From a virus (Duplodnaviria; Heunggongvirae; Uroviricota; Caudoviricetes): a stretch of DNA of 64,000 nt. Each line of letters begins with the position of its first letter. The stretch's first letter is position 1. Of this stretch, positions 1-64,000 are shown in pieces. The stretch spans positions 1-64,000 of the IMG/VR virus record IMGVR_UViG_3300049596_000323. The stretch is one strand, 5' to 3'. Under the pieces are notes generated by a model that saw nothing but the letters and a program-made list of their open reading frames with translations, was not told the DNA's origin and did no database searches. A program made the position numbers and the translations under genes.

Positions 1-478
1 TGTTACCTGGTTTTAATAAATATTCTTGTCTATAAGATCTAGCTATTGCATTGTTTGTTTTGTATACAGCTTGTATAAGCTCAGGCATACATGTAGGACA
101 ACCTGTTGTACATTGAGGATTGGTACAGGGTACTGTTCCACTAATGATAGGTGCTATCTGAATAGTTGTTTGAGATGCAGCTTGTGAATAGAATGAGTTA
201 GCTGATTGATAAGGATACCCTGGAATCTCAGTACACATCCAAGCTTCTCTAGCAGCATAAAAGTTATCAGGAAGCCTAGCTTGGAAGTCTTCAATATAAA
301 GAACTTGCTCAGCAATAGCATAAGTTGTCCTACCTAACTTGTTTAAACACTTGTTTAAATAAGTAGGGAAAAGCAAATCATCCACAGCTCCTGTGTCAAA
401 ATAGCTTTTTAATTCTTCTTTAACAGTTGCATAAACTGGTTCAGGAGATACAAATCTGTACTTATAATAGTATGACAT
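1..478 (-). CDS. hypothetical protein, N-terminal 159 aa only; the gene runs off the window start
   Basis: Minus-strand ATG at 476-478, then an open frame (MSYYYKYRFVSPEP...) with no stop before position 1; Cys-rich segment CTNPQCTTGCPTC. Confidence 0.4.
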   Translation of the reverse strand, partial: MSYYYKYRFVSPEPVYATVKEELKSYFDTGAVDDLLFPTYLNKCLNKLGRTTYAIAEQVLYIEDFQARLPDNFYAAREAWMCTEIPGYPYQSANSFYSQAASQTTIQIAPIISGTVPCTNPQCTTGCPTCMPELIQAVYKTNNAIARSYRQEYLLKPGN

Positions 479-481
479 AAT

Positions 482-958
482 TTATTTTTTCCACTCACGA
501 TAGATGTGTTGATACGTATCGTTTGTTTTTATATAATGTGAGAGCAATCTTGATGTAACTCTTGAAGGTTTAAAATACCACAAGTCTATGTTTCTTAGTC
601 TGGCAGTTTCTTTAAACCATACCCAGCCAAAAAAGTAACCCTCTGTGTGATAATTAAAGTTGTATATAATTTTTCCCTTCTCTTTAGACTTTTGCCAGTC
701 TACTGGTAAGTTAATGTACTCCTTACCATTGATATCCTTAACCTTCTTTCTTTTCTTTTTATTGATTGAGAACTCACCAAACCCAAAAGGTAGCTTTGCT
801 TTTTCTCCAGTTTCTAGTATATAACTTTTAAAATTCTCATTATAAGAATATAAAATGTTTCTCCACTCATCAAATGTAATTTTAATTGTGGGATGCTTCT
901 TGCAAAAGTTATTGTAGTTTTCTTTACTGGAGCTTCTCCAATCAATTTTTATCCTCAT
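482..958 (-). CDS. hypothetical protein
   Basis: 158-aa ORF packed tightly into the minus-strand operon; its start overlaps the upstream stop. Confidence 0.45.
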   Translation of the reverse strand: MRIKIDWRSSSKENYNNFCKKHPTIKITFDEWRNILYSYNENFKSYILETGEKAKLPFGFGEFSINKKKRKKVKDINGKEYINLPVDWQKSKEKGKIIYNFNYHTEGYFFGWVWFKETARLRNIDLWYFKPSRVTSRLLSHYIKTNDTYQHIYREWKK

Positions 959-1692
959 TACTGGGTTGGTTGTGCATTAGGAGCTTGCCCATCAACACCG
1001 TTATCTGCCATATCTGTTTTAATACTAAAATATGTAGATAATAATTTTTGAGACGTAAGCTCTAATACTTGTTTCTCAAGATATCCTGGACAACCATATT
1101 CTTTATCCAAAGGATTTTTGCAGTATTCTTCATTAGTAACCTCAGGACCAGTTCCACAACCACATTCTGGATACGCAATATCATTAGGAATATCTTCTTC
1201 AAAGAATGCTGATATCCTAACTGATTTTAAATTTGGATTACTCAAATATAAGTAACCTTCATTTGCTATCCAATAGTATGTTTGTTTTTTAATAATAGGA
1301 AGTCCCAGTAAGTTTAAATATCTATTGATTGTAATCTCTTTAAACTTTGTACCCATTCCTCCCATAGCGTTTATAGAATAAACACCTTGTATTAAATATT
1401 GATAATTTCCTTCTGTAATCCTAGGAAGTTTATATTTACTTCTAGAAACAGTACATGGATCTACGTAATTACAACAGTCAGAAATAGGAACTTCTACCAT
1501 TTCCAAACATTGGATGGTATTAAAGACAGTATCAGTAGCCCAAAGCTTTCTGAGATTTGTCTCACGTTTAACTAATAACTGTGTGTTGTTTCTAATCTCT
1601 GATGCTATAACCCTATCTGTGATAACGTTATCTGTGGATATAAGCTTATGCATTCCACGCACATCTGAAACTAACTTACGTAATGTTGCCAT
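958..1692 (-). CDS. hypothetical protein
   Basis: 244-aa ORF, translationally coupled to its neighbours; several Cys residues (CGCGTGPE). Confidence 0.45.
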   Translation of the reverse strand: MATLRKLVSDVRGMHKLISTDNVITDRVIASEIRNNTQLLVKRETNLRKLWATDTVFNTIQCLEMVEVPISDCCNYVDPCTVSRSKYKLPRITEGNYQYLIQGVYSINAMGGMGTKFKEITINRYLNLLGLPIIKKQTYYWIANEGYLYLSNPNLKSVRISAFFEEDIPNDIAYPECGCGTGPEVTNEEYCKNPLDKEYGCPGYLEKQVLELTSQKLLSTYFSIKTDMADNGVDGQAPNAQPTQ

Positions 1693-2933
1693 TATAAATA
1701 CTGTTTAAATATATTTGTCATTCCTGACCCTTGTTCTATTAAGAATCCAGTCACTTCTGCTTTAGACATTGTATGACCGTTCTTATCATCCCAAAGGCTT
1801 TTAGCATTAGAAAATGCTGGTATTTGGTAAAATTTAATACCATTGAAGTCGTGACTAACCTCATGGTGTTTGTCTCCTGTGAATATGTAGAAGTTGTTAT
1901 GGAAAGACCATCCTTCTCTAAATTCTATTGGGAATAGTGCTGCTAACTTAGCAGGCTTAATTGCATCTCCATGGTTAAACATCATTGCTGAACCACCATA
2001 GCTTATGTACTTTCTATACTTAGGAGAGCAGTCAAAAGTTAATCTGTCTGTGTTTCTAAAATACGTTTGTAACCAGTTAACCATATGCCATCCTACAAAC
2101 TCATCATGATTACCTGCTACGTACACAACATTCACATTCTCAGCATATTGTAATAACATTGTAATCATTAACACCTCATGTCCACAGATGTATTCAAAAG
2201 ATGTTTGATATGTATGAGTGTTTGTTTGAGGAGTACCCTTTGTGGTCATTCCTGTAAACTCACTGTTAAACTCATCAGAACCAATGATGTATGTAATTTG
2301 TTCTAAGTTGTTGGAAAGCTGTGCTTGATTAGCAATCAACTCTACCTTGTACATGATGTTAGAAAGCCTATCAACTATATCATTGTTGCCATCAATATCA
2401 TATTTGTTTAAATGAGAGTCTTGTTTGTTGATAATTAACATACCGTTACTCTTACCATTTATAAACTTAGGACTCATAATGTCCTGACTAACAGGCTCAT
2501 ATGAAGCTAAAAAGTCCACAAAGCTATCTTGAAACACTTGCTCTGCAGACTTCTTTCCTAACCAGGCTTTTACTTGCCAGTGTGGATTATCTCCGTTTCC
2601 CCAATAGTTTTGTACGTATTTAGTTATCTCCCACTTATCTGTGTCTATCTTACACTTCTCAATAAGCTCATCAAGGCTTTTAATCTCTTCTGAGACATTG
2701 GCTACAATCTCTCCAGTTCCTTTCACTAGGTCTTCTGTAAACTTAACTACAGTGTCCTCTAGATCAGATATATAGTTGCCAGTGATGGCCTCTTCTTCTC
2801 TCTTTCTAATATCTGTTAATAACTCATCAATCTCTAATTCTGTCACTCCTAGCTTGTCAGCGTAATATTTCTTTGATTTTTTCCAGTGTAACATCTGCTG
2901 TAGCTGCTCCAAAAGGGGTTGGTTTCCAGACAT
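1692..2933 (-). CDS. calcineurin-like metallophosphoesterase
   Basis: Metallophosphatase motifs VYVAGNHDE, FNHGD and GDKHHEVSH. Confidence 0.6.
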   Translation of the reverse strand: MSGNQPLLEQLQQMLHWKKSKKYYADKLGVTELEIDELLTDIRKREEEAITGNYISDLEDTVVKFTEDLVKGTGEIVANVSEEIKSLDELIEKCKIDTDKWEITKYVQNYWGNGDNPHWQVKAWLGKKSAEQVFQDSFVDFLASYEPVSQDIMSPKFINGKSNGMLIINKQDSHLNKYDIDGNNDIVDRLSNIMYKVELIANQAQLSNNLEQITYIIGSDEFNSEFTGMTTKGTPQTNTHTYQTSFEYICGHEVLMITMLLQYAENVNVVYVAGNHDEFVGWHMVNWLQTYFRNTDRLTFDCSPKYRKYISYGGSAMMFNHGDAIKPAKLAALFPIEFREGWSFHNNFYIFTGDKHHEVSHDFNGIKFYQIPAFSNAKSLWDDKNGHTMSKAEVTGFLIEQGSGMTNIFKQYL

Positions 2934-3044
2934 ATAGGTTTTAAGTTTGGTTAAAATTAAAGTAAAGGTATGAAACTTTTTTGATATTTTCCAAATTTAG
3001 TTAACTAATTTAATTATATAGTTTAATCAATTTGATTAGAGTTC

Positions 3045-3090
3045 AAAAAAAAAACCCCCAGGGTAGAAACCCCAGGGGATGCCCTGTAAA
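3045..3090 (-). terminator. rho-independent terminator after the tail-fibre genes
   Basis: On the minus strand CCCUGGGG-UUUCUA-CCCUGGGG gives an 8-bp stem with two G-U pairs, followed by a U10 run; a second small hairpin CAGGG-CAUC-CCCUG sits upstream. Confidence 0.55.
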
Positions 3091-3117
3091 CCAACAAACA
3101 GGGTTTTTAATAATTTA

Positions 3118-3600
3118 TTATAAACAAGGCCCAATTTCTGTTATTGAAATAGCTTCAGAACTTGAATCTACAGAATCTCTTGCAGCACAAATTTCTCTAC
3201 ATTGCGTATTTACTACACTTGACTCTATAGATGTTCCATTACAACTTATGTAAGTAAAAGGAAAAGCATCTCTATCTCCTGTACCATCATTTGCACAAAC
3301 CTCATAACCATAACATTCAATAGGAGGTATTAAAGTTGTACTTGAACTAGTTGTGCTAGTAGTACTAGTTGTTGTAGCAGGAGCACCTGATACATCTAAA
3401 TAAAGATCTCTTTGACAAGCTCCTGTAGACCTAACTAAAACTTCTGTAGTTCCATCAGGAACAGTTGCGTTATAGCCAGCTACCAAAGATGCTCTAGATA
3501 CACCAGAGATGATTATTGTTGAAAACCCATCTGCATTTGAGTATATGTTAAAAGGTCCTGTATCAGAACCAGCTGTTGTCAAAGTTATTAATACTGTCAT
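3118..3600 (-). CDS. Thr/Ser-rich fibre-associated protein
   Basis: 160 aa; linker TTTSTTSTTSSSTT plus Cys residues; lies in the tail-fibre cluster. Confidence 0.35.
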   Translation of the reverse strand: MTVLITLTTAGSDTGPFNIYSNADGFSTIIISGVSRASLVAGYNATVPDGTTEVLVRSTGACQRDLYLDVSGAPATTTSTTSTTSSSTTLIPPIECYGYEVCANDGTGDRDAFPFTYISCNGTSIESSVVNTQCREICAARDSVDSSSEAISITEIGPCL

Positions 3601-3614
3601 GTTGGTTTATTTAA

Positions 3615-4880
3615 TTAAGGTAATTTTATCCAATCAGATCCAGAATTTGTAGATCTCCAAAGTCCAGTTGTTTCTGAAGCAATTGCTACAAATGAATTAT
3701 AAGAAATTGATACACTATTCCAAAGTTGAGAACTTGTCACTGGAGAAAGCGTACCAAATGAAACTGATTTATATAATCTACTTGTACCTGTAAGAAATTG
3801 CATAGCTATAATATTTGTACCGCTTCCATCTATAGTTATATCACCCCATTGAGTAGAAACTCCACCAAAATTTGCGTATGTTTCTCCATAGTCTATACTT
3901 CTTTTTAATTGAACAGCTCCAGGACTAAATCCATAAACTCCACCTTGATTAGCAACAACCACCTTTGATCCATCTGCATTTGTACTCACTGCAAAATATG
4001 TTTGATCTTCATCAAGTGCTTTAGGTGTAAAAATACTTGAGGCACTTGTTGTTCTTCCTACACTACCTCTAAGTGGTGCTATAGAAAAATTGGGACTAGC
4101 AGCATATTGACGATCACCTGAACTATTTATTGCAACATCATATACTAATTGAGGAAGAACATCAATACCTGCATTAATTGAAAACTCCACTCTTACAAAA
4201 GATACTCCATAGTCTGAAGATCTCCAAACTTGATTTAAGTATGGCTCGTTTATTGCTTCACCTGAATTCATTGAACCAACTATTACATATTGTCCTGTTC
4301 TATTTGTAGTGATTGAAGAATATGCATTACCTGTACCCCCTGTAGCATTCCAATTAACCCCATAGTCTGTAGATCTTACAATAGTAGATGGTTGTCCTGA
4401 TTGTTGTACAGTGCAATATATATATTGACCTGTTCCACTTATTGCAACTCGTTTTATTAAATTTGCTGCAGCAGCTACAAAAACTGATCTATATGTAAGT
4501 CCGTAGTCATTAGAAATATATAACTTATTATTTGTTGAACATATTACAGCTACGTATTTACCATCATTTGAGCTAGTAACATCATCTCTACTTACAGCAA
4601 CACTAGTAAAATAAAGATTGTTAGTTGGATTAATTGTAGTGGTTGTAGTTGTAGTACTAGCACATGGAATAGCTTGTGCTATTACATTTGTACAAGCTCC
4701 AGTAGATGTTACTGTCACTTGACTAGCAGCATTATCTACATCAACAGTTTTACCTGCAAGCAGTTCTGCTTTTGTAGCAGTTGATGGACTTACACTTCCA
4801 ACATCTGCTGTAAGATTAAAGTTTGGTCCTAAGTTAGCACCTAACCCAGCTCCTAATGTTAATGTTATATTTATTGCCAT
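3615..4880 (-). CDS. BNR/Asp-box repeat protein (sialidase-like beta-propeller), probable tail fibre or receptor-binding protein
   Basis: Four S-x-D-x-G-x-T-W-like repeats: STDYGVNW, SSDYGVSF, SIDYGETY, STNSGSDW; poly-Thr stretch CASTTTTTTTINPT. Confidence 0.5.
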   Translation of the reverse strand: MAINITLTLGAGLGANLGPNFNLTADVGSVSPSTATKAELLAGKTVDVDNAASQVTVTSTGACTNVIAQAIPCASTTTTTTTINPTNNLYFTSVAVSRDDVTSSNDGKYVAVICSTNNKLYISNDYGLTYRSVFVAAAANLIKRVAISGTGQYIYCTVQQSGQPSTIVRSTDYGVNWNATGGTGNAYSSITTNRTGQYVIVGSMNSGEAINEPYLNQVWRSSDYGVSFVRVEFSINAGIDVLPQLVYDVAINSSGDRQYAASPNFSIAPLRGSVGRTTSASSIFTPKALDEDQTYFAVSTNADGSKVVVANQGGVYGFSPGAVQLKRSIDYGETYANFGGVSTQWGDITIDGSGTNIIAMQFLTGTSRLYKSVSFGTLSPVTSSQLWNSVSISYNSFVAIASETTGLWRSTNSGSDWIKLP

Positions 4881-4893
4881 TTTTTATTTTATT

Positions 4894-5757
4894 TTATATA
4901 CACCCACCATCACATCTTGAAAATACGTTTAACGTTAATGTGTTTCCAATATCTCCACTTGTAACAATATATGTTGCTGAAAATAAAGTAGTAGAACCAT
5001 TACCGCATGAAGCATCTGCTATAATACCAGATGTGTATGCGTTTGCTTTATCGTCAGGATTAGTACATCCATATGTAGTGACTTCAACATTAATTGAATC
5101 ACCCATAGAAACAGCATATATACCACTTGCATTTGTACTTCTACTTTCAACAACTGAACCATTTACATATAAATCCATATTACCAATAACACCTGAACCA
5201 CTTTCATTAAAAGTCCAAGATAAGTTCGCAGTTGAAGCAGTGTTACAAACTACAGTGAGTCCATTGTAATTACATTGAGGTATAGTAGTTGTACTAGTTG
5301 TAGTGCATGGATAGTTTGCATAACAACATCCTGAATAATTCACAGAAGATAAACGAACACCAACAACTGAACCTCTTAAAATTCCACAACCTGTTACAGG
5401 TCCACCTTCTCCTCCAGATGAACATGCAATAATTCCTATAGACCCACCGTAAGGAAGATAATAATAATATGTATTTCCAGAACAATCTTGATATGATATA
5501 GTTTGACTAAATCCATCTGACATTTGATTATATACTTCAACACCTGATACACAAGGACATGGATAGTCTTGATATTTAGGAGCTCGTGTATCAGGATAAG
5601 TAGACCAAGGGCTAACTGTACCATCTATATAGTAGTTAGTACTAGCTTCTCCTTTGCTCATAATACTACCATCAAGAGGAGGAGTTGTCCCAGGCTTCTG
5701 TATATATCCCATTGTAGCAAGATCTGCTCCTGTTACTAAAAAATTACTAACTTTCAT
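4894..5757 (-). CDS. Cys-rich tail-fibre-like protein
   Basis: 287 aa; many Cys pairs (CPC, CC, CG) and a TTTSTTTIP linker; adjacent to the fibre genes. Confidence 0.35.
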   Translation of the reverse strand: MKVSNFLVTGADLATMGYIQKPGTTPPLDGSIMSKGEASTNYYIDGTVSPWSTYPDTRAPKYQDYPCPCVSGVEVYNQMSDGFSQTISYQDCSGNTYYYYLPYGGSIGIIACSSGGEGGPVTGCGILRGSVVGVRLSSVNYSGCCYANYPCTTTSTTTIPQCNYNGLTVVCNTASTANLSWTFNESGSGVIGNMDLYVNGSVVESRSTNASGIYAVSMGDSINVEVTTYGCTNPDDKANAYTSGIIADASCGNGSTTLFSATYIVTSGDIGNTLTLNVFSRCDGGCI

Positions 5758-7619
5758 TATTGGTTTAATTTAGCTTCTAATTCTGCTATGCGTTTTTCTA
5801 ATTGTGCTATTTTTAATGTATGTACATCTGAATAGTTAACTACTAGTTTATCTTCTCCTGATACAACATCTGGTAAAATTGCTTGTACCTGTTGTGCAGA
5901 ATATCCATATCTAATTTGATTAGACTCTTCATCTGTACGAGTAAATTTAATCACTTGTATTCCTAATACATCAATATTAGGATTTGTTTCTAATACATTT
6001 TTAAATCTGATATCTGATGTTTCATAGAATGAACCAGCATTTAATTGAGAACCACTAATTGTAACTCCTGTATTTGCTGTTGCACTGTTTGATGTACCAT
6101 TTGCTGTAAGAACAGCTCCTGATGTTGTAGGAGAAATGGAATTAAATCCTGCTCCATTAGCTCCACTAGTTCCAGAAGTTCCAGATGTACCTCCTGTACT
6201 AGCTCCTGAAGAACCAGAAGTACCAGAAGTACCCCCAGTGCTAGCTCCAGATGTACCTGAAGTTCCTCCAGTACTTTGACCTGAAGACCCTGAGGTACCA
6301 GATGTACCACCTGTACTTTGACCTGAAGATCCACTGGTTCCAGTTGTACCAGAAGTACCTGTTGTTCCACTTGTGCCAGTTGTTCCACTTGTGCCAGTAG
6401 TTCCACTTGTACCGCTTGTACCTGAAGTTCCAGACGTACCAGAAGTCCCTGACGTTCCACTCGTACCAGATGTACCAGTGGTTCCAGATGTGCCTGATGT
6501 GCCAGTGGTACCGCTAGAACCAGCTGTTCCAGATGTTCCTGAACTACCAGCAGCACCTACAGGAACTAACATAAATACTTCACCACTAGCAGGATTTGTA
6601 CCCTGAGCTGCAGTTTGAGTAACTATAAATCGTTCAAAACCCACTTCAAAAGGAGAAGTGGATACAATTTCTAATATTTTAAATCTAGAAGAATCAACCG
6701 TACTAACTAGCTTAAGTGCTGAGAAAGGGTTCAGTGCATCTAGATATGCTGAGAAGTCAGCACTAGGATTATATGATAAATCACTGATAGCAATTTGAGA
6801 AGCAGAGGCTAACCAACTTGCATCATTTAAAGTGAAATATGTAGCACCAGGATTAATGTCTGTGTTTGTACTAGGATTAAATCTCCATTGTGCAAGACCT
6901 CCTTCAAAGCCTGATGTACCAGATGTGCCAGTTGTTCCACTGGTTCCAGTTGTTCCTGAAGTACCAGTGGTACCAGAAGTACCAGTTGTTCCACTTGTGC
7001 CAGTAGTTCCAGAAGTTCCAGTTGTACCACTAGTACCTGTTGTTCCTGAAGTTCCAGACGTACCAGTTGTTCCATGAGTACCATCTGTACCACTTGTACC
7101 AGAAGTTCCATCTTCACCACTTGTTCCAGCAGTACCAGATGTACCTGTAAGACCACTTGTACCGTTTGCACCACTAGTTCCATTAATACCACTTGTTCCA
7201 TCAGCACCTCTTCCACCAGATGTTCCACTGGTTCCTGAAGCACCGTTTGTACCACTTACACCAGAGGTACCAGAAGTACCGTTACCACCAGAAGTACCAT
7301 TGGCACCAGATGTTCCAGATGTACCAGAAGCTCCTGGTGTACCGTTAATACCAGAAGTTCCTGATGTTCCACTTGTACCACGAGTGCCAGAAGAACCAGA
7401 CGTACCTGAAGTACCTGTTCCTCCACCACCTGTACCAATGGCATCATCTAATTTTTCTATAGCAAGAGTTAAGCAGTTTCCGTTTTGAACTCCTGAGTTT
7501 GGTAAATTAGGACCAACGTATATTACATTATTTGAATTGCTAATGCACTCAGCACATCCACAGTTTTCACTAGGATGATAATAAGCGTTATAGCAAGGTG
7601 TACCAGGTAAACAAGACAT
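5757..7619 (-). CDS. collagen-like tail fibre with C-terminal intramolecular-chaperone (peptidase S74-like) domain
   Basis: Two long Gly-X-Y tracts (GTSGTSGT...) flank a non-collagen domain. The C-terminus SDIRFKNVLETNPNIDVLGI...LEKRIAELEAKL matches the auto-cleaving chaperone of phage fibres and endosialidases. Confidence 0.7.
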   Translation of the reverse strand: MSCLPGTPCYNAYYHPSENCGCAECISNSNNVIYVGPNLPNSGVQNGNCLTLAIEKLDDAIGTGGGGTGTSGTSGSSGTRGTSGTSGTSGINGTPGASGTSGTSGANGTSGGNGTSGTSGVSGTNGASGTSGTSGGRGADGTSGINGTSGANGTSGLTGTSGTAGTSGEDGTSGTSGTDGTHGTTGTSGTSGTTGTSGTTGTSGTTGTSGTTGTSGTTGTSGTTGTSGTTGTSGTSGFEGGLAQWRFNPSTNTDINPGATYFTLNDASWLASASQIAISDLSYNPSADFSAYLDALNPFSALKLVSTVDSSRFKILEIVSTSPFEVGFERFIVTQTAAQGTNPASGEVFMLVPVGAAGSSGTSGTAGSSGTTGTSGTSGTTGTSGTSGTSGTSGTSGTSGTSGTSGTTGTSGTTGTSGTTGTSGTTGTSGSSGQSTGGTSGTSGSSGQSTGGTSGTSGASTGGTSGTSGSSGASTGGTSGTSGTSGANGAGFNSISPTTSGAVLTANGTSNSATANTGVTISGSQLNAGSFYETSDIRFKNVLETNPNIDVLGIQVIKFTRTDEESNQIRYGYSAQQVQAILPDVVSGEDKLVVNYSDVHTLKIAQLEKRIAELEAKLNQ

Positions 7620-7638
7620 TTATAGTTGATTTAGAATA

Positions 7639-8742
7639 TTAAGGAATATACATGATGTAATAAGAAGCAATTACAGGTTGAATGTTTGGATGACCTTGAT
7701 TACTACCAGTGTTTGTGTTGCTTACATTTACAGTTGTTGCTACAGTGATACCTGTTGTAGAAGTTGTAGTTTGAACATTCTTTGGTGTTCTATTTACAAT
7801 ACCAATACTACCTGAACTATCCCAACCTTCTGGTGTATTACCAACATAATGACTATGCCCAGGATCTGTTACAGTGGATGAAGCACTTGCTGTTGCAGTG
7901 TGTGTGTGACTAGGAAGTTGATTAACATTTATAGCCACTGTGTTTGCACCAGCAATATCTTCAAGATCATAATTTGGATTACCAGCATAAACAGGATCTA
8001 CAGCAGCGGTTAATGGTCCACCAGGAACATTAAGAATAGCTCCTACACCAACTCTACCTCTTTTATCAGGAGTGCCGTTAGAACCATTACATAAATAGAT
8101 TTTATCCCATCCTAATGTTCCTATACCAGCACCTGTACCATCAAAGTTTGTAAGAGGACCATAGTATTCAACTACTGTAAAAGGAACCATCTTTAAATAG
8201 TTCTGAGTTACATTACCTGATTGACCAGCTATGTAAGCAGCTATTAATGCATCTAGGTCAGACAGCTTTACATAGTTTGTGCTTACATCTAAATCTAATG
8301 CTGCTAAATCTGCCACTACAACACAAAGTCTTGTAATAACAGCTTGTAAGATAGCATGTGTGTCAGAAGAGGCTGTTACACCTGTAAGACAATCTATTGT
8401 ATAATCTGCATTTAATACAGCAATATCAGCAGCAACTGCAGTCACCTGAGCTTGTAAACTACAAACAGATTTAACTAACGCTGTGAATAATTGAGTAGAA
8501 TTAGGAGAAGTGATTCCTATTAAGAATCCATTTATAAGAGCACATTTATCACCAGAAGCAATAGTTATAACATCACCTGTACCAGTTAATAACGGAACAA
8601 GTTTAGTTGTAATCATTTCTTCTACATGAAGCAATGTATCTCCTGTAGTAATATTTAGAGCAGGGATAGTTGGACCTGTATATCTAACACATTGATCAGA
8701 TACAGTCTCAACACATCCATTAAAACAACTTGTACAAGACAT
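7639..8742 (-). CDS. tail fibre protein with phage tail-collar domain
   Basis: WDKIYLCNGSNGTPDKRGRVGVG...LPSHTHTA resembles the T4 gp12-type tail-collar domain motif. Confidence 0.6.
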   Translation of the reverse strand: MSCTSCFNGCVETVSDQCVRYTGPTIPALNITTGDTLLHVEEMITTKLVPLLTGTGDVITIASGDKCALINGFLIGITSPNSTQLFTALVKSVCSLQAQVTAVAADIAVLNADYTIDCLTGVTASSDTHAILQAVITRLCVVVADLAALDLDVSTNYVKLSDLDALIAAYIAGQSGNVTQNYLKMVPFTVVEYYGPLTNFDGTGAGIGTLGWDKIYLCNGSNGTPDKRGRVGVGAILNVPGGPLTAAVDPVYAGNPNYDLEDIAGANTVAINVNQLPSHTHTATASASSTVTDPGHSHYVGNTPEGWDSSGSIGIVNRTPKNVQTTTSTTGITVATTVNVSNTNTGSNQGHPNIQPVIASYYIMYIP

Positions 8743-8750
8743 TTTATAAT

Positions 8751-9017
8751 TTATTTATTTATTAACAATATTACTCTACTTGCAATCATCTCCACTGTAA
8801 AAGGTGCACAGTATTCTGGATTACAAAGTTTGTAAGTTAATATTTGTTTATAGTGTAGTAAGTCACCAATTACCTGTCCTGGAATAAAATAATTCAAGGA
8901 GTATACAATATTATTATACTGATCATTAGCTAACGCAGTTAGTCTAAGATCAATATCAGTTAATAGTGCAGGTATGCTAGCACACTCAATACAGTCCGTT
9001 AATCTTGGTGATAACAT
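8751..9017 (-). CDS. hypothetical protein
   Basis: 88-aa ORF between structural genes. Confidence 0.3.
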   Translation of the reverse strand: MLSPRLTDCIECASIPALLTDIDLRLTALANDQYNNIVYSLNYFIPGQVIGDLLHYKQILTYKLCNPEYCAPFTVEMIASRVILLINK

Positions 9018-9130
9018 TTCTTATTCTTTGATTAATTTGTTTCAGCTTGTTATTACATGCTGAACACAAGCCATTAATTAATTGACATCCGCAGCCTACT
9101 TTAAGGCCACAATCTCTACAGTTTGCCATA

Positions 9131-9691
9131 TCAATAGAAGTTATTTATATAGTTGTTTCCAGAACAACCACAGTTGTTCCTAATAAAATTATCTAATTGT
9201 CTATCTGCCTGTAAATATAATCTGTTAGCTGTATCTATTGCACAGTTATTAGCAGCAGCAATAGAGCCTTGAATCATATAATATATACTATTTAGATTCA
9301 CTTTTGCTTGTGTTCTAATTGCACTATCACATTCCATCATATCAAGCTTCATGAAAGCATTATCAAATTTTTCTTGAATTCTTTCAGTACGCATTATGTT
9401 CTTTTCTACAAAGTTTAAATATGCAGGAGCAACAGAATATTTCATAAAGTATACACCATCTGGAAGAGGTTGCATACCTCCTGCAAGAGTATTAAGTCCT
9501 AATATAATAGAATTATAAACATTAAAATCTTGAGGTATAAAAGGAATAGACACAGGAACAGTATATCCAGGAATAGTAATCTCCATAGTTGGAGCAACAA
9601 CATTAGGAGGCTGTGTATCATAAACTGATATATCAGCAACACCTAGTGTTTTTGTATTGAAAGTATTTATTACTAAAAAATCTAGAGTCAT
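9131..9691 (-). CDS. hypothetical virion protein
   Basis: 186-aa ORF in the structural operon. Confidence 0.4.
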   Translation of the reverse strand: MTLDFLVINTFNTKTLGVADISVYDTQPPNVVAPTMEITIPGYTVPVSIPFIPQDFNVYNSIILGLNTLAGGMQPLPDGVYFMKYSVAPAYLNFVEKNIMRTERIQEKFDNAFMKLDMMECDSAIRTQAKVNLNSIYYMIQGSIAAANNCAIDTANRLYLQADRQLDNFIRNNCGCSGNNYINNFY

Positions 9692-9772
9692 GTCTTTAAA
9701 ATAAAAATGCCAGAGGACTTGAGATTATCCTCTCACCCTCTGGCATAGGTTAATATGATTCTACTTTTATTC

Positions 9773-10912
9773 TTAAGGAATCAAAGTAGTTGTTGTTGAA
9801 GTACTAGGCCAAATAGTAGTTGTAGTACTAGTTGTAGAAGTGATATCACCACTTTCATCAGATACAACACCCAAAGCAGCCTCTAATACATCTAAGATGT
9901 CTTGAGTTAACGCTTGTGGAGCAGCAATGATTACTTGAGAATCTTCAATGATATAATCACCCCACTTGTAAGCAGATTTGTCATACTCATTAAACTTGAT
10001 ATACAAAGTATCGTAAGTAGTACCATCAGTTACCCAAGACTCAAAGTTCTCGTTGTAACCAACCATTCTGTACAAATGCTTCAAATAACCAGCTTGGTAG
10101 CTATAGAAGTTTTTCTCTAATTGTTGAATCTCTCCAGAAGTACCAGAAACATAAGAACTACGTTGAGTAATTACAGCTTGAGCTACTTGGTTACAAGGAT
10201 CATCAACAATGAAGTCAGCAGTTGTAGCTGGACCAGAGAAGATGAATGTACGGAAATACATACGGTCATACTCCCAAGGGAATGCAGCCACATCACATGG
10301 TTGTCCATAGATAGTCAAAGGCTTACCGCTAATAACTAACTTAGCACTTGCATTATTACCAACTCTTTGGAATTGATAGAAAGTGTCAAAGCTAATGTTG
10401 TCAGGGTTGTTACCTGGAGCTTTTTGACGTAACTTGATGATTAATTCATCAATTAAAGCAGGTACATCAACATCTGTACAAGGATCACCACCACATTCTA
10501 AACATGGAGCGTTTACAGTTACACTACGAGTGAAACCGTTGAAATACAATGTGTCAATGTAACTAGAGAAAGCACGTAATGTTAAAGTTACAACTTCACC
10601 TGGTTTTACAGTGAAATCACCAACTTCTGTTACTTGGTTAGCAGCAACTGGATTACCTGTAACTTTGTACCATTCAGATACATTGTCTGCAGAAATCTTG
10701 TCAGAACGCTTAGAACCTTGTAAATACGTGTTTACTCTACCTTGAGCTAAATAGAAATAAGGAGCAGCTGCAATGTTACCTACAGTTGCAACAGCATAGT
10801 TATTGGTATAAATACCAAACTGACCAGCTGTTAAGTCTTGTGTTGATCCAGAGCTAGGTAATGAATTTCCTACTGGTACAACAAAGAGGGTGGTTAATGA
10901 AAAATCCGCCAT
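9773..10912 (-). CDS. structural protein with C-terminal poly-Thr linker
   Basis: 379 aa ending TSTTSTTTTIWPSTSTTTTLIP. Confidence 0.4.
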   Translation of the reverse strand: MADFSLTTLFVVPVGNSLPSSGSTQDLTAGQFGIYTNNYAVATVGNIAAAPYFYLAQGRVNTYLQGSKRSDKISADNVSEWYKVTGNPVAANQVTEVGDFTVKPGEVVTLTLRAFSSYIDTLYFNGFTRSVTVNAPCLECGGDPCTDVDVPALIDELIIKLRQKAPGNNPDNISFDTFYQFQRVGNNASAKLVISGKPLTIYGQPCDVAAFPWEYDRMYFRTFIFSGPATTADFIVDDPCNQVAQAVITQRSSYVSGTSGEIQQLEKNFYSYQAGYLKHLYRMVGYNENFESWVTDGTTYDTLYIKFNEYDKSAYKWGDYIIEDSQVIIAAPQALTQDILDVLEAALGVVSDESGDITSTTSTTTTIWPSTSTTTTLIP

Positions 10913-12803: not shown

Positions 12804-14357
12804 TTAGAATTGAGGAATTTCTTCAATCAATACTGTTCTAGATAAATCTTCAATGAATACATCACAACGATCTTTCATCCAGATTTCGTATCCTGGGAAT
12901 TTATTTGCAGAACTCATACCTTGAGACTTAGCAAAGCCTAAGTGGTGACGAGTACCATCAATATAACCCCAAGTCATAGAAGGAGCACCCTTCATACGTA
13001 CTTCACGAATGTTGTTGATCATAGAACCATCAGACATTGGAGATACATCAAACACCATAAATACTGGAGTTGACTTCTTATTCTGACCAAATTCTAAGTT
13101 TGTTTGAGGAAGATCTAATTCTTTCAAGTGGATCAATTCAACACGACCAGTCTCACGTGTAACCATTGCATCAAATGCAAAGTTGTAAGTAATGTGTTGA
13201 CCTTCTCCTTGTAAATATCTGTTACCAGAATCAGCCATGAAAGTTAAACCTGAATTCAATGCATCATTCTTTAAAGCTTGTTGGAACACGTCAAAACCAG
13301 CTTCGTTAGTGTACATTTTAACTCTACGATCCTTAACATCAACACGTCTGTAGAACAAGTCACCAAACACTGAACGAATCAAGTTTGCAGTGAACTCACC
13401 ACGGTTGTATTGTACTAAGTTACCGTTATTACGCATTCTGTGGTAAACACCAGCAGATGTACGCTTTAATTCTTGCTTAGAACCATTAGTCTTCACGGTA
13501 CCAGGCTTAGCCCAGATCATACGCTTAACTTTTAATTCTAACATAGACTTACGCATCCAGAACTCAATAAATGGTTCCCACTTAACATCATTACGAGTTA
13601 AAGGTAATTGGTTACGTCTTTGAGGAGCATATACTAAAATGTCTAAAGCTTTACCAGAAGCATCAACCATCATCTTATCATCAGCCCACTCAGTGATTTT
13701 GTGCTCATAACCATATGCAGAACCTAAAGATTCAAACATTGTGATTTGCTCACCTAAACGAGGAAGACCTAATAAGTCTTGGTCAAATTCACCAATTGCA
13801 GCATCAACTAATTCCAATTCAATACCAACTCTTAAGAAGTTAGGACTAACGAAATCTACAGTTGGATTGTCTGTAACTAAAGTGAAAGTGTATAAGTAAC
13901 CCATGTTCCAGTTTACTGGATCTTTGATTACATAGAAACGAGGACCATACTGACGAGTACCTACAGATACAATTGCATTCTTAGAGAACTCATTAGTATC
14001 AATTACTAATTGGAATTCTTGACCATCAATACCTGGCTTGCTCAGCTCTAAAGTACTTGTTGGAATGTCAATGATTTTAGGGAACTTGTATGGAACTTGT
14101 ACCTGCCACTTCCAAGCATCACTGTTGTTGTCAATATAGTAAGGAGTGCTCTTGTTAATCATGTCCAAGAAGTCATTACTGTAAAGAGAGCTTTGAGTAT
14201 ACAAACTGATAATTTTCTTATCATAATCTGCTGGCTCTGTAGAGTGAAAGCTTTCCAAGTGGTTAGCATCTGTTAATTTACCTACAGCACGCTTGTCCAT
14301 AGAAGCTACTCTTGCGTAAGTAAAACCAGTTAAACCTGGAATTGTTTGAATTGCCAT
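12804..14357 (-). CDS. major capsid protein candidate
   Basis: 517-aa ORF immediately after the scaffold gene, in the terminase-portal-scaffold-capsid order; called by position only. Confidence 0.5.
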   Translation of the reverse strand: MAIQTIPGLTGFTYARVASMDKRAVGKLTDANHLESFHSTEPADYDKKIISLYTQSSLYSNDFLDMINKSTPYYIDNNSDAWKWQVQVPYKFPKIIDIPTSTLELSKPGIDGQEFQLVIDTNEFSKNAIVSVGTRQYGPRFYVIKDPVNWNMGYLYTFTLVTDNPTVDFVSPNFLRVGIELELVDAAIGEFDQDLLGLPRLGEQITMFESLGSAYGYEHKITEWADDKMMVDASGKALDILVYAPQRRNQLPLTRNDVKWEPFIEFWMRKSMLELKVKRMIWAKPGTVKTNGSKQELKRTSAGVYHRMRNNGNLVQYNRGEFTANLIRSVFGDLFYRRVDVKDRRVKMYTNEAGFDVFQQALKNDALNSGLTFMADSGNRYLQGEGQHITYNFAFDAMVTRETGRVELIHLKELDLPQTNLEFGQNKKSTPVFMVFDVSPMSDGSMINNIREVRMKGAPSMTWGYIDGTRHHLGFAKSQGMSSANKFPGYEIWMKDRCDVFIEDLSRTVLIEEIPQF

Positions 14358-15800: not shown

Positions 15801-16331
15801 CTAATCTAATTTATTAATAAAGTTGTCATTTATAAGTCTAATGCTTCTTATTGGAGCTAGGTCAGTGAGTGTAACTTGTTGAACTTCAACCCCCCACTTC
15901 TTAGCTTCCACCCTCACTTTCTTAGTAAGAGTGTTATCAATTTCAGCATCTGTACACTCATCTAATGTCATAGACATAATGACATTTTTAATGATAGCTT
16001 GTGCCATATCTGATATAGCATCTTGAGCATCCCAAACTTCTAATAAGAATATTTTAACGTCAGCTATCTTATATTTAATCAATCCTTTCACAACAATATT
16101 CTGTTTATCTGCTGTATACAAAGATTGTGCATCAAGACTTAATGTTGTAGTGACAACATGCTGGTCAATCACCTCGTCAAACATTGGAATTTTCAAATGT
16201 ATTCCAGGTTCAAGAACTTTTTTAAATTTTCCAAACCTAAGTAATACAGCTTTCTCGTAATCTCTTATTATAATTATTGGGGTTAGTTGTAACCACCAAT
16301 TAGATATAATCTCAATCAGTTTATCAAACAT
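15801..16331 (-). CDS. SPFH/band-7 (stomatin/prohibitin-like) domain protein
   Basis: AVLLRFGKFKKVLEPGIHLKIPMFDEV...TADKQNIVVKGLIKYKI follows the SPFH consensus. Confidence 0.6.
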   Translation of the reverse strand: MFDKLIEIISNWWLQLTPIIIIRDYEKAVLLRFGKFKKVLEPGIHLKIPMFDEVIDQHVVTTTLSLDAQSLYTADKQNIVVKGLIKYKIADVKIFLLEVWDAQDAISDMAQAIIKNVIMSMTLDECTDAEIDNTLTKKVRVEAKKWGVEVQQVTLTDLAPIRSIRLINDNFINKLD

Positions 16332-41362: not shown

Positions 41363-42082
41363 ATGAATTGGGAAAAATTTAAAGATCAGTTTCATGAGAG
41401 TTGGCACTTAAAGATGAGACCATTTATTGAGAGCGAAGCTTGTGATGAAATCTATAAATTTCTTAAGTCAGAGAGTCAGAGGGGCAAGAAGATTGCTCCT
41501 CTGTCTTCTAATGTCTATAGATGTTTTATGGAGACCCCACTAGATGAGCTTAAGATTGTAATGATGGGTATGGCTCCATATCACACACTTAAACAAGGAA
41601 GTCCTGTAGCAGATGGTTTATTGATGGGCTGTTCCACCACTGGTGTATTACAGCCTTCATTAGAACAGTTCTATGGAGCAATTGAAAGAGAAGTGTATAA
41701 TGGACTATGTGCTTATTGTGACAAGACTAATCCAGATGTAAGCTATCTAGCTCATCAGGGTGTATTAATGTTTAATGCATCTCTCACCACTGAGATTAAC
41801 AAAGCAGGTAGTCATATCAAACTGTGGGAACCGTTCACAAAGTATGTCATAGAGGAGATTTTAAATCCTCAACAAGTTCCTTATATATTCTTAGGCAAAG
41901 ATGCTGCACAGTATGCTAGGTATGCAAATCCATTTGTATGGAGTTTCACAACTACACATCCTGCATCAGCTAGCTATAGGAATACAGAATGGGAATCTGG
42001 AGATGTATTCAGAATGGTTAACAAGGTGATAAAAGACAATAATAATTTTCAAATTGAATGGTTAGACGGTACACCATTTTAA
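41363..42082 (+). CDS. family-1 uracil-DNA glycosylase homologue with substituted catalytic Asp
   Basis: Collinear with E. coli Ung: LKIVMMGMAPYH (GQDPYH), GVLMFNASLTT (LLLNTVLTV), HIKLWEPFTKYVIEEI (HASLGWETFTDKVI), HPASASYR (HPSPLSAHR). Confidence 0.75.
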   Translation: MNWEKFKDQFHESWHLKMRPFIESEACDEIYKFLKSESQRGKKIAPLSSNVYRCFMETPLDELKIVMMGMAPYHTLKQGSPVADGLLMGCSTTGVLQPSLEQFYGAIEREVYNGLCAYCDKTNPDVSYLAHQGVLMFNASLTTEINKAGSHIKLWEPFTKYVIEEILNPQQVPYIFLGKDAAQYARYANPFVWSFTTTHPASASYRNTEWESGDVFRMVNKVIKDNNNFQIEWLDGTPF

Positions 42083-54831: not shown

Positions 54832-55119
54832 ATGCCAAAGTTATTAGGAAATAGAATTTTATTAGAGATGCCTCCACAAGATGACAATAGTAAGTTAATT
54901 GTGGATGACAATACTAAAGAAGCATTACAAAGAGAATTGCTTAACAAAATGTCTAAGTTAAAAGTGTTACAAGTGGGCACTATTGTTACAGAAATCAAAG
55001 CAGGAGACTATGTATTAGTAGATCCAGCAGCTTTAAACAAAGCTACATTAGTCCCAATCAATGAAGATGATGACCGTGCAATCTTGGTATCACCATTTGA
55101 CATAATTCAAATCTGGTAA
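54832..55119 (+). CDS. GroES-like co-chaperonin
   Basis: 95 aa collinear with GroES: LLGNRILLE (LHDRVIVK), KVLQVG (EVLAVG), IKAGDYVLV (VKVGDIVIF), DDRAILVSPFDIIQI (NEEVLIMSESDILAI). Confidence 0.55.
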   Translation: MPKLLGNRILLEMPPQDDNSKLIVDDNTKEALQRELLNKMSKLKVLQVGTIVTEIKAGDYVLVDPAALNKATLVPINEDDDRAILVSPFDIIQIW

Positions 55120-55850
55120 TGAAATACAAAATTGTATTAAAAACTAGTCATAAACATACTGACAGAGTAGATAACTGCCTTGAAACGTGGTTATCTGCTC
55201 TTGATTATGTATGTCTTACAGATAAACTTACAGGGAGACCTAATGAGATATCTTGTTCTGACAAAGATGATTATCAAAGCAATGAAGAGAAGACAGTCAA
55301 CTTCATTAACCTGGTTAGGACTACTGACCAACTTGATGCATATGATTGGTTAGTCTTCATTGATGATGATGCAATACTTAACATTCCTTTATTTGAAGAA
55401 GTGATTACATTCTTTAGTAAAACTGCTGTATACGGATATAGTATGAAAGGGTCTTATACAAAAGAACCTGAACTAGATTATCCATCAGGGGGATGTGGTT
55501 ATTTTATATCTCCACAACTGATTAAAAATTGTCAACCTATGACTGTAAAAGGTTATGGATATGAAGATGTTTGTATAGGCACATGGTTAAAAGAGAACCA
55601 GATAAAAATCTATGATAAGTTTTTAGATTCAAATGTTTTACATAGACTATATCTAAATGGCTGGTTTCCATTTCAAAGATATTTCAATGACCTTTGGAAA
55701 GAAGGAGATAGTTATGTACCTAAGATGCTAGCTGACCTTACAGAAGAAGATGTTACATTTTTACATAAACATGTAACACATCATTATATAAGACATAAAA
55801 GCTTTATGAGATATTTACATACTCTTCTAAATGAAAAAAGCCCCAAATAG
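55119..55850 (+). CDS. GT31/Fringe-like glycosyltransferase
   Basis: DxD motif LVFIDDDAI, PSGGCGYFIS (GGAGYVLS-like), YEDVCIGTWL (EDVxxG). Confidence 0.55.
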   Translation: MKYKIVLKTSHKHTDRVDNCLETWLSALDYVCLTDKLTGRPNEISCSDKDDYQSNEEKTVNFINLVRTTDQLDAYDWLVFIDDDAILNIPLFEEVITFFSKTAVYGYSMKGSYTKEPELDYPSGGCGYFISPQLIKNCQPMTVKGYGYEDVCIGTWLKENQIKIYDKFLDSNVLHRLYLNGWFPFQRYFNDLWKEGDSYVPKMLADLTEEDVTFLHKHVTHHYIRHKSFMRYLHTLLNEKSPK

Positions 55851-56654: not shown

Positions 56655-56655
56655 T

Positions 56656-57018: not shown

Positions 57019-57023
57019 TTTAA

Positions 57024-57407: not shown

Positions 57408-57419
57408 AATATTATTGTT

Positions 57420-63999: not shown

Positions 64000-64000
64000 A

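Follow-up and report, generated by a model that had tools for sequence, protein, structure and literature searches.

The phage analysed here carries threonine-rich tracts on putative particle proteins and encodes a predicted glycosyltransferase that, across unrelated phages, was found to be gained and lost together with such tracts. This points to an undescribed way of sugar-coating virus particles, although the support is so far genomic only. The enzyme, here called GT2, is encoded at 59314-60330 of the window, i.e. the whole 64,000-nucleotide stretch that was analysed (IMG/VR record IMGVR_UViG_3300049596_000323). A sequence-only reading of this DNA had reported Thr/Ser runs in at least six structural or fibre ORFs and two glycosyltransferase genes, one GT31/Fringe-like (here GT1) and one with a DxD motif (GT2), and had proposed virion O-glycosylation. 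The observation itself was confirmed. Its interpretation was only partly supported, since the comparative evidence strongly favours GT2 and not the GT31/Fringe-like gene on which that reading laid emphasis.

Threonine-rich tracts of the window

The ORF coordinates given by the sequence-only reading were correct. Seven ORFs displayed Thr/Ser runs far beyond chance, five of them in the crAss-type virion module (3118-10912), where [ST] runs of 6 or more were counted, and two, missed by that reading, on either side of GT2 (Table 1). The likely sixth ORF of the reading, 5757-7619, is a collagen-like protein whose longest [ST] run is 3. No genuine ORF elsewhere in the window had such a run, the few other [ST]5-6 hits being short frames that overlap longer ORFs. 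In per-protein shuffles, the probability of a run at least as long was below 5e-5 for four ORFs (0 of 20,000 shuffles for three, 1 of 20,000 for 9773-10912), 0.002 and 0.007 for two, and 0.016 for 7639-8742, which is the weakest case. The module context was established by a crAss-type capsid protein and a tail ring protein flanking the ORFs on one strand, together with a P22-like portal and a terminase (phrog_6681). Yet, the virion location of the tract-bearing proteins is inferred from gene order and weak profile hits.

Table 1. Features of the window, with tract positions, profile matches and conservation among relatives
Position (strand)	Feature	Thr/Ser tract (position)	Sequence evidence	Conservation
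958-1692	Tail ring protein		CrAss_Ring_2 7.5e-17	
3118-3600 (-)	160-aa protein: N-terminal domain, tract, Cys-rich C-terminal domain	14 residues, TTTSTTSTTSSSTT-LIPP (3334-3375)	N-domain homologous to that of 3615-4880 (36% identity, E 3e-5)	Tract present, with variable length, in 58 of 58 homologs
3615-4880 (-)	421-aa protein: ~62-aa N-terminal domain of the same family, linker, BNR/sortilin-like C-terminal domain	STTTTTTT-INP linker (4635-4658)		Tract kept in 9 of 9 homologs
4894-5757 (-)	Cys-rich 287-aa protein	Internal linker TTTSTTT-IPQ (5284-5304)		Tract kept in 10 of 10 homologs
5757-7619 (-)	Collagen-like fibre: two blocks of G-T-S/G-T-T triplets plus C-terminal Peptidase_S74 chaperone domain	No runs; Thr/Ser-rich (36%)	Pfam Collagen 2.3e-30, Peptidase_S74 4e-4; tail-fibre PHROGs; 9-nt periodic repeats	
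7639-8742 (-)	Tail-fibre-like protein (Gp10_C-like C-terminus)	TTTSTT (7753-7770)		Runs in 32 of 69 homologs
9773-10912 (-)	379-aa highly conserved virion-module protein of unknown role	Runs TSTTSTTTT and STSTTTT; C-terminal 22-aa tail TSTTSTTTTIWPSTSTTTTLIP (9776-9841)		Tail in 79 of 79 orthologs; 3635 homologs in public genome and metagenome data
12804-14357	crAss-type major capsid protein	No tag	Crass_capsid 8e-27	
55119-55850 (+)	GT1: Fringe/GT31-like glycosyltransferase, 243 aa; possible glycan-extending enzyme, link to the tracts unproven		Pfam Fringe 1.1e-6, 28.6 bits (cut-off 21); Galactosyl_T 22.9 bits (cut-off 23, just below); DDD at residues 82-84 within FIDDDAIL (80-87)	Narrow metagenomic family of 123 proteins (PF02434, PF01762); no hit in the phage collection
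59094-59294 (-)	66-aa ORF directly downstream of GT2: conserved ~49-aa N-terminal domain plus C-terminal tract	TTSTTSTTSTTTT-AIPE (59109-59147)		N-domain homologs in 78 of 80 related loci, with poly-T tails of very variable length or longer C-terminal domains
59314-60330 (-)	GT2: predicted soluble GT-A (GT8-like, retaining-type fold) glycosyltransferase, 338 aa; proposed poly-Thr-directed protein O-glycosyltransferase		phrog_4417, function unknown (1.7e-53)	
60569-60724 (-)	51-aa ORF upstream of GT2: conserved N-terminal module (MAIPxRxIG...LWxISKQxE) plus C-terminal tract	TTTTTTTTTP (60575-60601)		Homologs in 62 of 80 loci; N-module elsewhere fused to collagen-like or globular domains

The tail of the 379-aa protein, TSTTSTTTT[IV]WPSTSTTTTLIP, was under strong purifying selection at the amino-acid level, which indicates that it is not a neutral low-complexity spacer. 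Mean pairwise amino-acid identity was 93.6% for the tail against 51% for the preceding 60 residues, and Ser positions were kept through AGY/TCN codon switches. It also keeps its exact S/T order, an invariant Trp-Pro and the terminal LIP, which is stricter than a generic mucin-like acceptor would require and looks like a specific binding motif, whereas tracts beside GT2 vary greatly in length. A structural role is therefore conceivable: GT2 would recognise poly-T proteins, but the conserved tails would serve mainly in assembly, e.g. docking onto a neighbouring subunit, and glycosylation, if any, would be confined to the small carrier-like ORFs next to GT2 without coating the virion. We consider this unlikely, since in phages of Gram-positive bacteria the tags sit on the major capsid and major tail proteins themselves, as simple T7-T21 runs with no other conserved feature.

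The sequence-only reading had also suggested that repeated nucleotide motifs could drive recombination between fibre genes. This claim was weak, and an explanation in which the tracts matter mainly as slippage or recombination sites appears very unlikely. The exact motif ACTAGTTGTAGT occurred once, and tracts shared at most about 21 nt at 76-90% identity (11-12 nt exactly), as expected from ACT/ACA/AGT codon use. The 379-aa tail showed 37 nucleotide versions for 15 protein versions, i.e. it is conserved as protein with synonymous variation, and the idea does not explain the link to GT2. In its favour, tract length differs between close relatives (e.g. TTSTTSTTSTTTT, TTSTTSTTTT and TTTTTTTT in the same ORF) and the proteins are modular around the tracts.

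GT2 and its association with poly-Thr tracts

The GT2 model obtained with AF2 (pLDDT 88.8) displayed a confident GT-A, GT8-like fold. The best Foldseek hits in PDB were WbbM, glycogenin, the UGGT catalytic domain and GT6 (E about 1e-7, probability 1.0), and viral GT8 proteins as well as LP65 Orf49 were hit in BFVD. Residues Y106, D108 and D110 (YxDxD motif) were invariant from the window phage to the Enterococcus and Chryseobacterium phages, and further conserved motifs were SGGAQ (184-188), QxWxAxMWAxLWN and HNAG. Yet, no Pfam or NCBIfam family, including Glyco_transf_8, was matched at E <= 0.1 or 0.01, respectively.

A clear relationship was observed between GT2 and poly-T tracts. In 77 of 80 IMG/VR relatives of the clade (65-100% identity), poly-T ORFs lie within 700 nt of GT2 on the same strand. 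Likewise, all 10 unrelated annotated phages examined that carry a homolog (phiFL1A, VPE25, iLp84, Lactococcus 1706, bIL285, Clostridium phiCTP1, Semele, Staphylococcus F1, Arcanobacterium TPWB06 and Chryseobacterium MA9V-3, from Enterococcus, Lactobacillus, Lactococcus, Clostridium, Staphylococcus, Arcanobacterium and Chryseobacterium) place it in the morphogenesis module, where tail, capsid, portal or decoration/fibre-like proteins carry poly-T tracts, mostly as C-terminal tags. In siphophages, including temperate ones, GT2 sits inside the head-tail morphogenesis operon. A natural experiment was provided by Lactobacillus phages iLp84 and CL1, whose major capsid proteins are 98% identical and major tail proteins 90% identical: the tags, a poly-T ORF and GT2 are present only in iLp84. 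The GT2-negative relatives Davies and phiS11 also lack tags.

Loci were also sampled from the other direction. Of 120 IMG/VR loci (1.03 Mb) chosen only for having 10 or more Thr codons in a row, 8 carry a GT2-family gene, each with a beads-on-a-string poly-T protein directly upstream, the last tract being 206-274 nt from GT2. With a base rate of 77 of 50,697 phage records, about 0.03 would be expected by our arithmetic, although the other 112 loci showed no GT2 within the flank retrieved. Among prophages in Bacillota genomes, 13 of 16 have a tract within 35 nt of the gene. Yet, 55 of 80 GT2-family loci in bacterial genomes have no poly-T tract nearby, so the family is not restricted to poly-T acceptors. 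In Bacteroidota chromosomes, homologs sit in RiPP clusters with GG-leader peptides (hits below NCBIfam cut-offs), radical-SAM/SPASM maturases and LanC-like proteins, which fits a family acting on peptide acceptors. By contrast, GT1 is a genuine but sporadic gene, not co-conserved with GT2: it lies near it in only 5 of 53 relatives with enough flanking DNA.

These data bear on the simplest alternative, in which the tracts are unmodified flexible linkers or spacers and both glycosyltransferases act on phage DNA, host envelope polysaccharide or teichoic acid, or a small molecule. Four of the tracts of the window are indeed internal linkers between a conserved N-domain and a variable C-domain, S/T-rich low-complexity regions are common in polysaccharide-binding proteins (PMC6821194), GT1 is sporadic and there is no direct evidence of glycan on any protein. 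This alternative is nevertheless judged unlikely, because many tracts are C-terminal tags that link nothing, because tags and GT2 are gained and lost together in 98%-identical capsid backgrounds, and because gene adjacency holds within the clade and across phyla.

Proposed virion glycosylation and its implications

We propose, with moderate confidence, that GT2 is a soluble, cytoplasmic, metal-dependent (DxD) GT-A glycosyltransferase that transfers a sugar from a nucleotide-sugar onto the hydroxyls of Thr (and Ser) in poly-Thr tracts of phage particle proteins. In this phage, the tracts take two forms: C-terminal tails, on the 379-aa protein and the two small ORFs flanking GT2, and linkers between a conserved N-terminal anchor domain and a variable distal domain in fibre-like proteins. 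Each typically ends in x-Pro, a mucin-like 'PTS' design. The result would be a glycan brush on the virion, which other enzymes may extend or decorate, namely GT1 and, just beyond the window in near-identical relatives, a GT4/GT9-methyltransferase fusion, an APS kinase and sulfotransferases. The tracts, the predicted fold and motifs of GT2, the synteny and the co-occurrence and co-loss across phages are established by our analysis, whereas the action of GT2 on the tracts, the donor sugar, the linkage, any activity of GT1 on O-linked sugars and the biological role (shielding, stability or adhesion) are inferred. Five of the seven tract-bearing ORFs of the window lie about 50 kb from GT2, which is an argument against the proposal.

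More tentatively, a widespread system may exist in which a portable poly-threonine 'glyco-tag' on capsid, tail, decoration and fibre proteins and a dedicated GT8-like enzyme (phrog_4417; 774 clusters at 50% identity) together build mucin-like glycan coats on virions of Bacteroidota, Bacillota and Actinomycetota phages, including therapeutic and dairy phages such as VPE25, phiFL1A, 1706 and iLp84. The enzyme would share ancestry with the transferases of Bacteroidota RiPP clusters. No description of such a system turned up in the literature searched. Virion glycosylation by phage enzymes is so far documented only in mycobacteriophages, where it alters antibody recognition. If the pair works as proposed, virion glycosylation would be far more widespread than known, extending to Enterococcus and Staphylococcus phages considered for therapy, dairy phages and very abundant environmental Bacteroidota phages, and its presence could be predicted from sequence by a simple rule. 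It would matter for phage immunogenicity, stability and adhesion, offer a short genetically encoded tag for glyco-engineering phage particles, assign a function to a PHROG of unknown function and explain a recurrent low-complexity feature in phage structural proteins.

Comparison with known glycosylation systems

The closest structural matches to GT2 are GT8-type retaining GT-A enzymes (glycogenin, the WbbM C-terminal domain and the UGGT catalytic domain). Glycogenin, itself a protein glycosyltransferase, and UGGT act on protein-linked acceptors. Yet, TM-scores were only 0.40-0.47, sequence identity was 11-14% and GT2 has its own conserved motifs. Animal mucin-type O-glycosylation (ppGalNAc-T, GT27, then core-1 synthase C1GalT1, GT31) offers an analogy through Thr-rich tracts with nearby Pro, a retaining-type GT-A fold as candidate initiator and a GT31-like gene as possible extender. 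However, there is no GT27 or lectin domain here, the process would be cytoplasmic rather than Golgi-based and GT1 is not conserved with the tracts.

Serine-rich-repeat adhesins of Gram-positive bacteria are O-glycosylated in the cytoplasm on long Ser/Thr-rich repeats by GtfA/GtfB with accessory GT8 enzymes; a literature search on the topic returned PMC6973325 and PMC7948813. No GtfA/B pair or accessory Sec genes were noticed near GT2, and the proposed acceptors are Thr runs on phage structural proteins instead of SxSx repeats on secreted adhesins. The general O-glycosylation of Bacteroidota is periplasmic and uses a D-S/T-A/I/L/V/M/T sequon, whereas phage particles assemble in the cytoplasm and the tracts are Thr runs rather than D-S/T-x sequons. 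As for glycosylated ribosomal peptides (glycocins such as sublancin/SunS and glycocin F), the position of cellular GT2 homologs in as yet uncharacterised RiPP clusters suggests peptide-directed glycosylation, but known glycocin transferases are Glycos_transf_2 family enzymes.

In giant viruses (chlorovirus Vp54, mimivirus fibrils), virus-encoded glycosyltransferases modify structural proteins independently of host machinery, and collagen-like G-x-T repeats are O-glycosylated in Bacillus BclA; PMC5408694 and PMC9614988 were returned by the same search. These cases involve eukaryotic viruses or bacterial spores, different enzymes and different attachment chemistry, and glycosylation of the collagen-like fibre of the window is speculation.

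The sequence-only reading had drawn a parallel with mycobacteriophages, in which phage-encoded glycosyltransferases (Che8 gp108-110, Corndog, Myrna) are thought or shown to put glycans on C-terminal parts of capsid and tail-tube subunits in the host cytoplasm (Freeman et al. 2023, as cited in PMC12363180 and PMC12619734). This parallel is functional, not homologous. BLASTP of GT1 and GT2 against Che8 gp108, gp109 and gp110 gave only chance hits (E >= 0.06). The Che8 enzymes belong to the glycosyltransferase families GT2/GT25 (Pfam Glycos_transf_2, one fused to a methyltransferase, and Glyco_transf_25). The Che8 capsid and tail C-termini are not poly-Thr. In the present phage, where the tags are on module proteins other than the capsid protein, the enzyme is GT8-like with no Pfam family and the acceptor signature would be a poly-Thr tract.

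Virion module and tract-bearing ORFs

The window is part of a phage genome of roughly 115 kb with about 34% G+C. A virion module on the minus strand runs from 22.8 kb down to 0.9 kb and includes a terminase (phrog_6681), a P22-like portal, an SPFH protein, a crAss-type major capsid protein and a crAss tail ring protein 2. All of the presumed virion ORFs named in the sequence-only reading are located between the capsid and ring genes on the same strand. Their assignment as virion proteins is thus inferred, since it rests on position and, for two of them (5757-7619 and 7639-8742), on profile hits to tail fibres, without proteomic evidence. No close relative was found among annotated phages: megablast of 20 kb gave only a 151-nt hit to two huge uncultured-phage records, and tblastn of the capsid protein found only a 25%-identical cyanophage protein. 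On the other hand, hundreds of relatives were found in IMG/VR and other metagenomes. A 67%-identical copy of GT2, the second transferase of the window, occurred on a contig of phage-genome size (JBBAJS010000010.1, 111,986 bp) deposited as part of a Sediminibacterium sp. MAG. This contig is probably a phage genome binned with, or infecting, that host, which hints at a Bacteroidota host for the clade.

The observation that Thr/Ser runs recur in these ORFs was real and non-random. Five ORFs in the interval 3118-10912 carried [ST] runs of 6-14 residues. When the ORF size limit was lowered, two further poly-T ORFs appeared that the sequence-only reading had missed, immediately downstream and upstream of GT2 (59094-59294 and 60569-60724). 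Among the roughly 94 ORFs of the window no other genuine ORF displayed such a run, the few additional short hits being frames that overlap longer ORFs. In per-protein shuffles, the probability of a run as long as the one observed was below 5e-5 for four ORFs, 0.002 and 0.007 for two, and 0.016 for the weakest (7639-8742). Nearly every tract was followed within one to three residues by Pro (LIPP, INP, IPQ, IWP, LIP, AIPE, P).

The claim that the tracts are encoded by a repeated nucleotide motif was only loosely true. The exact 12-mer ACTAGTTGTAGT occurred once and the tracts shared at most about 21 nt at 76-90% identity; the derived idea of recombination at an exact motif was accordingly rejected.

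A conserved tract forms the tail of the 379-aa protein (9773-10912), for which 3635 homologs were found. Its last 22 residues, TSTTSTTTT[IV]WPSTSTTTTLIP, were present in 79 of 79 orthologs examined, with a mean pairwise identity of 93.6%, against 51% for the 60 residues before it. There were 37 nucleotide versions for 15 protein versions, and Ser positions were held through switches between AGY and TCN codons. Selection therefore acts on the peptide and not on the DNA, which argues against a neutral spacer but also leaves room for a structural role. Searches for a role of this protein gave nothing: the AF2 model was of low confidence (pLDDT 46), PDB sequence searches with it, with its 322-aa neighbour and with the capsid protein found nothing meaningful, and Pfam, PHROGs and NCBIfam returned nothing. 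Elsewhere in the module, tracts were kept in all homologs of 3118-3600 (58/58), 3615-4880 (9/9) and 4894-5757 (10/10), and in about half of the fibre homologs. ORFs 3118-3600 and 3615-4880 share a 62-residue N-terminal domain ahead of the tract.

Features of the window, with coordinates and main characteristics
Position	Strand	Feature	Characteristics
958-1692	-	crAss tail ring protein 2	Virion module
1692-2933	-	413-aa protein	Matches the PHROG 'DNA repair exonuclease' (phrog_704, 1.6e-41); lies between the fibre-like genes and the tail ring protein, an odd place for a nuclease or phosphoesterase
3118-3600	-	Tract-bearing ORF	[ST] run
3615-4880	-	Tract-bearing ORF, fibre-like	The domain after the poly-T linker (residues ~83-421) gives weak hits to BNR/Sortilin-Vps10 and to an 'F510_1955 family glycosylhydrolase', suggesting a beta-propeller that binds or cleaves carbohydrate
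4894-5757	-	Tract-bearing ORF	[ST] run
5757-7619	-	Collagen-like fibre	36% Ser+Thr, arranged as G-T-S/G-T-T triplets, longest [ST] run of 3
7639-8742	-	Tract-bearing ORF with tail-fibre profile hit	[ST] run
9773-10912	-	379-aa protein	Conserved 22-residue C-terminal tail
12804-14357	-	crAss-type major capsid protein	Pfam Crass_capsid, 8e-27
15801-16331	-	SPFH/Band 7 protein	Pfam 1.6e-26; between the portal gene and the acidic, low-complexity 428-aa ORF upstream of the capsid gene
41363-42082	+	UDG-superfamily protein	Barely reaches the Pfam cut-off (24.5 against 24.3 bits); by eye, GMAPYH where family-1 UDGs have GQDPYH, so it may be catalytically altered
42460-44820	+	786-aa protein	Weak N-terminal GHKL (HATPase_c) ATPase hit, in the replication block
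55119-55850	+	GT1	Fringe/GT31-like
56157-57722	-	Four tandem small Lys-rich basic proteins	165, 120, 127 and 100 aa, all starting MAT(V/A)KK; one matches DUF6321; may be paralogous DNA-binding or internal proteins
59094-59294		Poly-T ORF downstream of GT2	66 aa, ending ...TTSTTSTTSTTTTAIPE
59314-60330	-	GT2	phrog_4417
60569-60724		Poly-T ORF upstream of GT2	51 aa, ending ...TTTTTTTTTP

The two TRANSFERASES

GT1 passed the Pfam Fringe threshold, nearly passed that of Galactosyl_T, and displayed the GT31-type DDD motif. Its family is small (123 proteins, all metagenomic) and tblastn found no homolog in the annotated phage collection. Although GT1 lies 3.5 kb from GT2 here, it was found near GT2 in only 5 of 53 relatives with enough flank, all of them close ones. 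Coupling of GT1 to the tracts was therefore rejected as a conserved feature.

GT2 had no Pfam or NCBIfam match and belongs to phrog_4417, of unknown function. An AlphaFold model built on 28 homologs was confident (pLDDT 88.8, pTM 0.88), and Foldseek placed it with retaining-type GT-A enzymes, i.e. WbbM, glycogenin, the UGGT catalytic domain and GT6 (E about 1e-7, TM 0.40-0.47). It also matched viral GT8-annotated proteins and Lactobacillus phage LP65 Orf49. The motifs YxDxD (D108, D110), SGGAQ, QxWxAxMWAxLWN and HNAG were invariant from this phage to the Enterococcus and Chryseobacterium phages. The family comprises 774 clusters at 50% identity. Of the ten longer members that were read, several were visibly fused to further transferase-like or methyltransferase-like domains, as judged by eye.

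Further glycan genes were observed in relatives with a 98%-identical GT2 (loci L003, positions 1-5730, and L004-L006), in the region that would lie just beyond window position 64000. They code for a ~1160-aa protein with Glycos_transf_1/Glyco_trans_1_4 hits and, in two of the four loci, Glyco_transf_9 hits (GT4/GT9-type), plus a faint methyltransferase hit, for an APS kinase, for sulfotransferases and, in one locus, for a Methyltransf_21 protein. These would form a toolkit for a methylated or sulfated glycan and could elaborate one, yet nothing ties them to the tracts.

Association of GT2 with poly-Thr tracts

A relationship was observed between GT2 and poly-Thr tracts within the clade. Of 80 IMG/VR loci with GT2 at 65-100% identity, 79 contained [ST] runs of 6 or more, and in 77 the tract-bearing ORF was located within 700 nt of GT2 on the same strand. 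Tract length varied greatly, often as (T7-x3)n repeats, with up to 11 tandem T7-x3 units or 45-residue (TS)n stretches in the small ORFs next to GT2 in some of these relatives (among loci L031-L086, e.g. L065, where the ORF starts 325 nt after the GT2 match, and L075, where it starts 62 nt after it), an extreme length polymorphism between closely related phages. In contrast, the N-terminal domains of the two small ORF families were conserved. In some relatives they were followed by collagen-like or globular domains instead of a bare tail, which is the pattern of a virion-anchoring module with a variable distal part.

The association extended across phyla. With tblastn, GT2 homologs were found in 77 of 50,697 phage records, ten of which, from different lineages, were examined. 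In every one the gene sits in the head-tail morphogenesis module, usually directly after the major tail or head gene, and nearby structural proteins carry poly-T tracts, mostly as C-terminal tags. This was the case for Enterococcus phiFL1A (capsid ending ...TTTTTKPTTTTTKPTTTTTTTQG and tail ending ...TTTTTSTTTTTTSSTTTTTTTQASSK), Enterococcus VPE25, Lactobacillus iLp84, Lactococcus 1706, Clostridium phiCTP1, Semele, Staphylococcus F1, Arcanobacterium TPWB06 and Lactococcus bIL285, while Chryseobacterium MA9V-3 displayed internal tracts of 21 to 41 residues in the two ORFs upstream. A small protein made of one domain plus several T7-x-(K/A)P repeats was often encoded directly upstream of the gene.

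Lactobacillus phages iLp84 and CL1 offered a natural experiment, since their capsid proteins are 98% and their tail proteins 90% identical. The iLp84 capsid protein ends ...VLVPTTTTTTTSK and its tail protein ...SGETTTTTTTSK, and this phage has both the poly-T ORF8 and GT2. The CL1 proteins end ...VLIPKP and ...GGSGTGA, and neither the poly-T ORF nor GT2 is present. The more distant GT2-negative relatives Davies and phiS11 also lack tags.

The relationship was also recovered when sampling started from the tracts. Among 120 IMG/VR loci (1.03 Mb) selected only for ten consecutive ACN codons, eight contained a GT2-family gene, whereas about 0.03 would be expected from the density in the phage collection (77 genes in 2.3 Gb). 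Each was 35-41% identical to the Chryseobacterium or Lactobacillus reference and not to the window's own GT2, and in each a beads-on-a-string protein with poly-T linkers every 90-100 residues was located directly upstream. In bacterial genomes, 13 of 16 Bacillota loci, presumably prophages, had a tract within 35 nt of the gene.

A universal link between the GT2 family and poly-T was nevertheless rejected, as 55 of the 80 bacterial-genome loci had no tract. These were mostly in the chromosomes of Sphingobacterium, Chitinophaga, Pedobacter and Elizabethkingia. In the three that were inspected (L309:1942-9603, L312:2556-8934 and L320:5995-8482, from Sphingobacterium, Chitinophaga and Elizabethkingia chromosomes), the homolog is a longer, fused protein (451-582 aa) located in an apparent RiPP cluster. 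Its neighbours are small peptides with the Bacteroidota GG-leader (TIGR04149-like, below cut-off) and Ser/Thr/Cys-rich cores, a C39-peptidase/VKOR/thioredoxin protein, a radical-SAM/SPASM RiPP maturase, a LanC-like protein and a Glycos_transf_2 enzyme. The family is thus not tied to poly-T everywhere, but in its cellular setting it again sits beside ribosomal peptide substrates, which fits a peptide- or protein-directed transferase. These clusters may encode uncharacterised glycosylated peptides.

Interpretation and comparison with known virion glycosylation

The proposal of the sequence-only reading, that phage transferases glycosylate the Thr/Ser tracts of virion proteins, was supported in part. 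For GT2 it is well supported by four independent kinds of comparative evidence, namely adjacency, cross-phylum co-occurrence, co-loss and sampling from the tract side; for GT1 it is supported only as a possibility. The tracts and their association with GT2 are what our analysis established, while the glycosylation itself, i.e. transfer by GT2 to poly-Thr tracts, is inferred from genomics without biochemical evidence, and DNA glycosylation as the target is not formally excluded. On balance, we consider it more likely than not that GT2 glycosylates the poly-Thr tracts of this phage's particle proteins.

Literature searches found no description of this enzyme family or of poly-Thr tags on phage proteins as glycosylation sites, although one in a subscription journal cannot be excluded. 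A survey of low-complexity regions reports Ala, Gly and Pro, not Thr, as the residues enriched in those of phages (PMC6821194).

Phage-encoded virion glycosylation is reported to have been shown for mycobacteriophages Che8, Corndog and Myrna, with glycans at the C-termini of the capsid and tail-tube subunits and with Che8 gp110 and Corndog gp38 as the essential transferases (Freeman et al. 2023, as reported in citing papers PMC12363180 and PMC12619734). Examination of Che8 showed that its three transferases are Glycos_transf_2 (one fused to a methyltransferase) and Glyco_transf_25. They displayed no similarity to GT1 or GT2, and the Che8 capsid and tail C-termini are not poly-Thr. The present case therefore resembles the mycobacteriophage system in what it would do but is not a member of it, being distinguished by a different enzyme family and by a distinct, sequence-recognisable putative acceptor tag.
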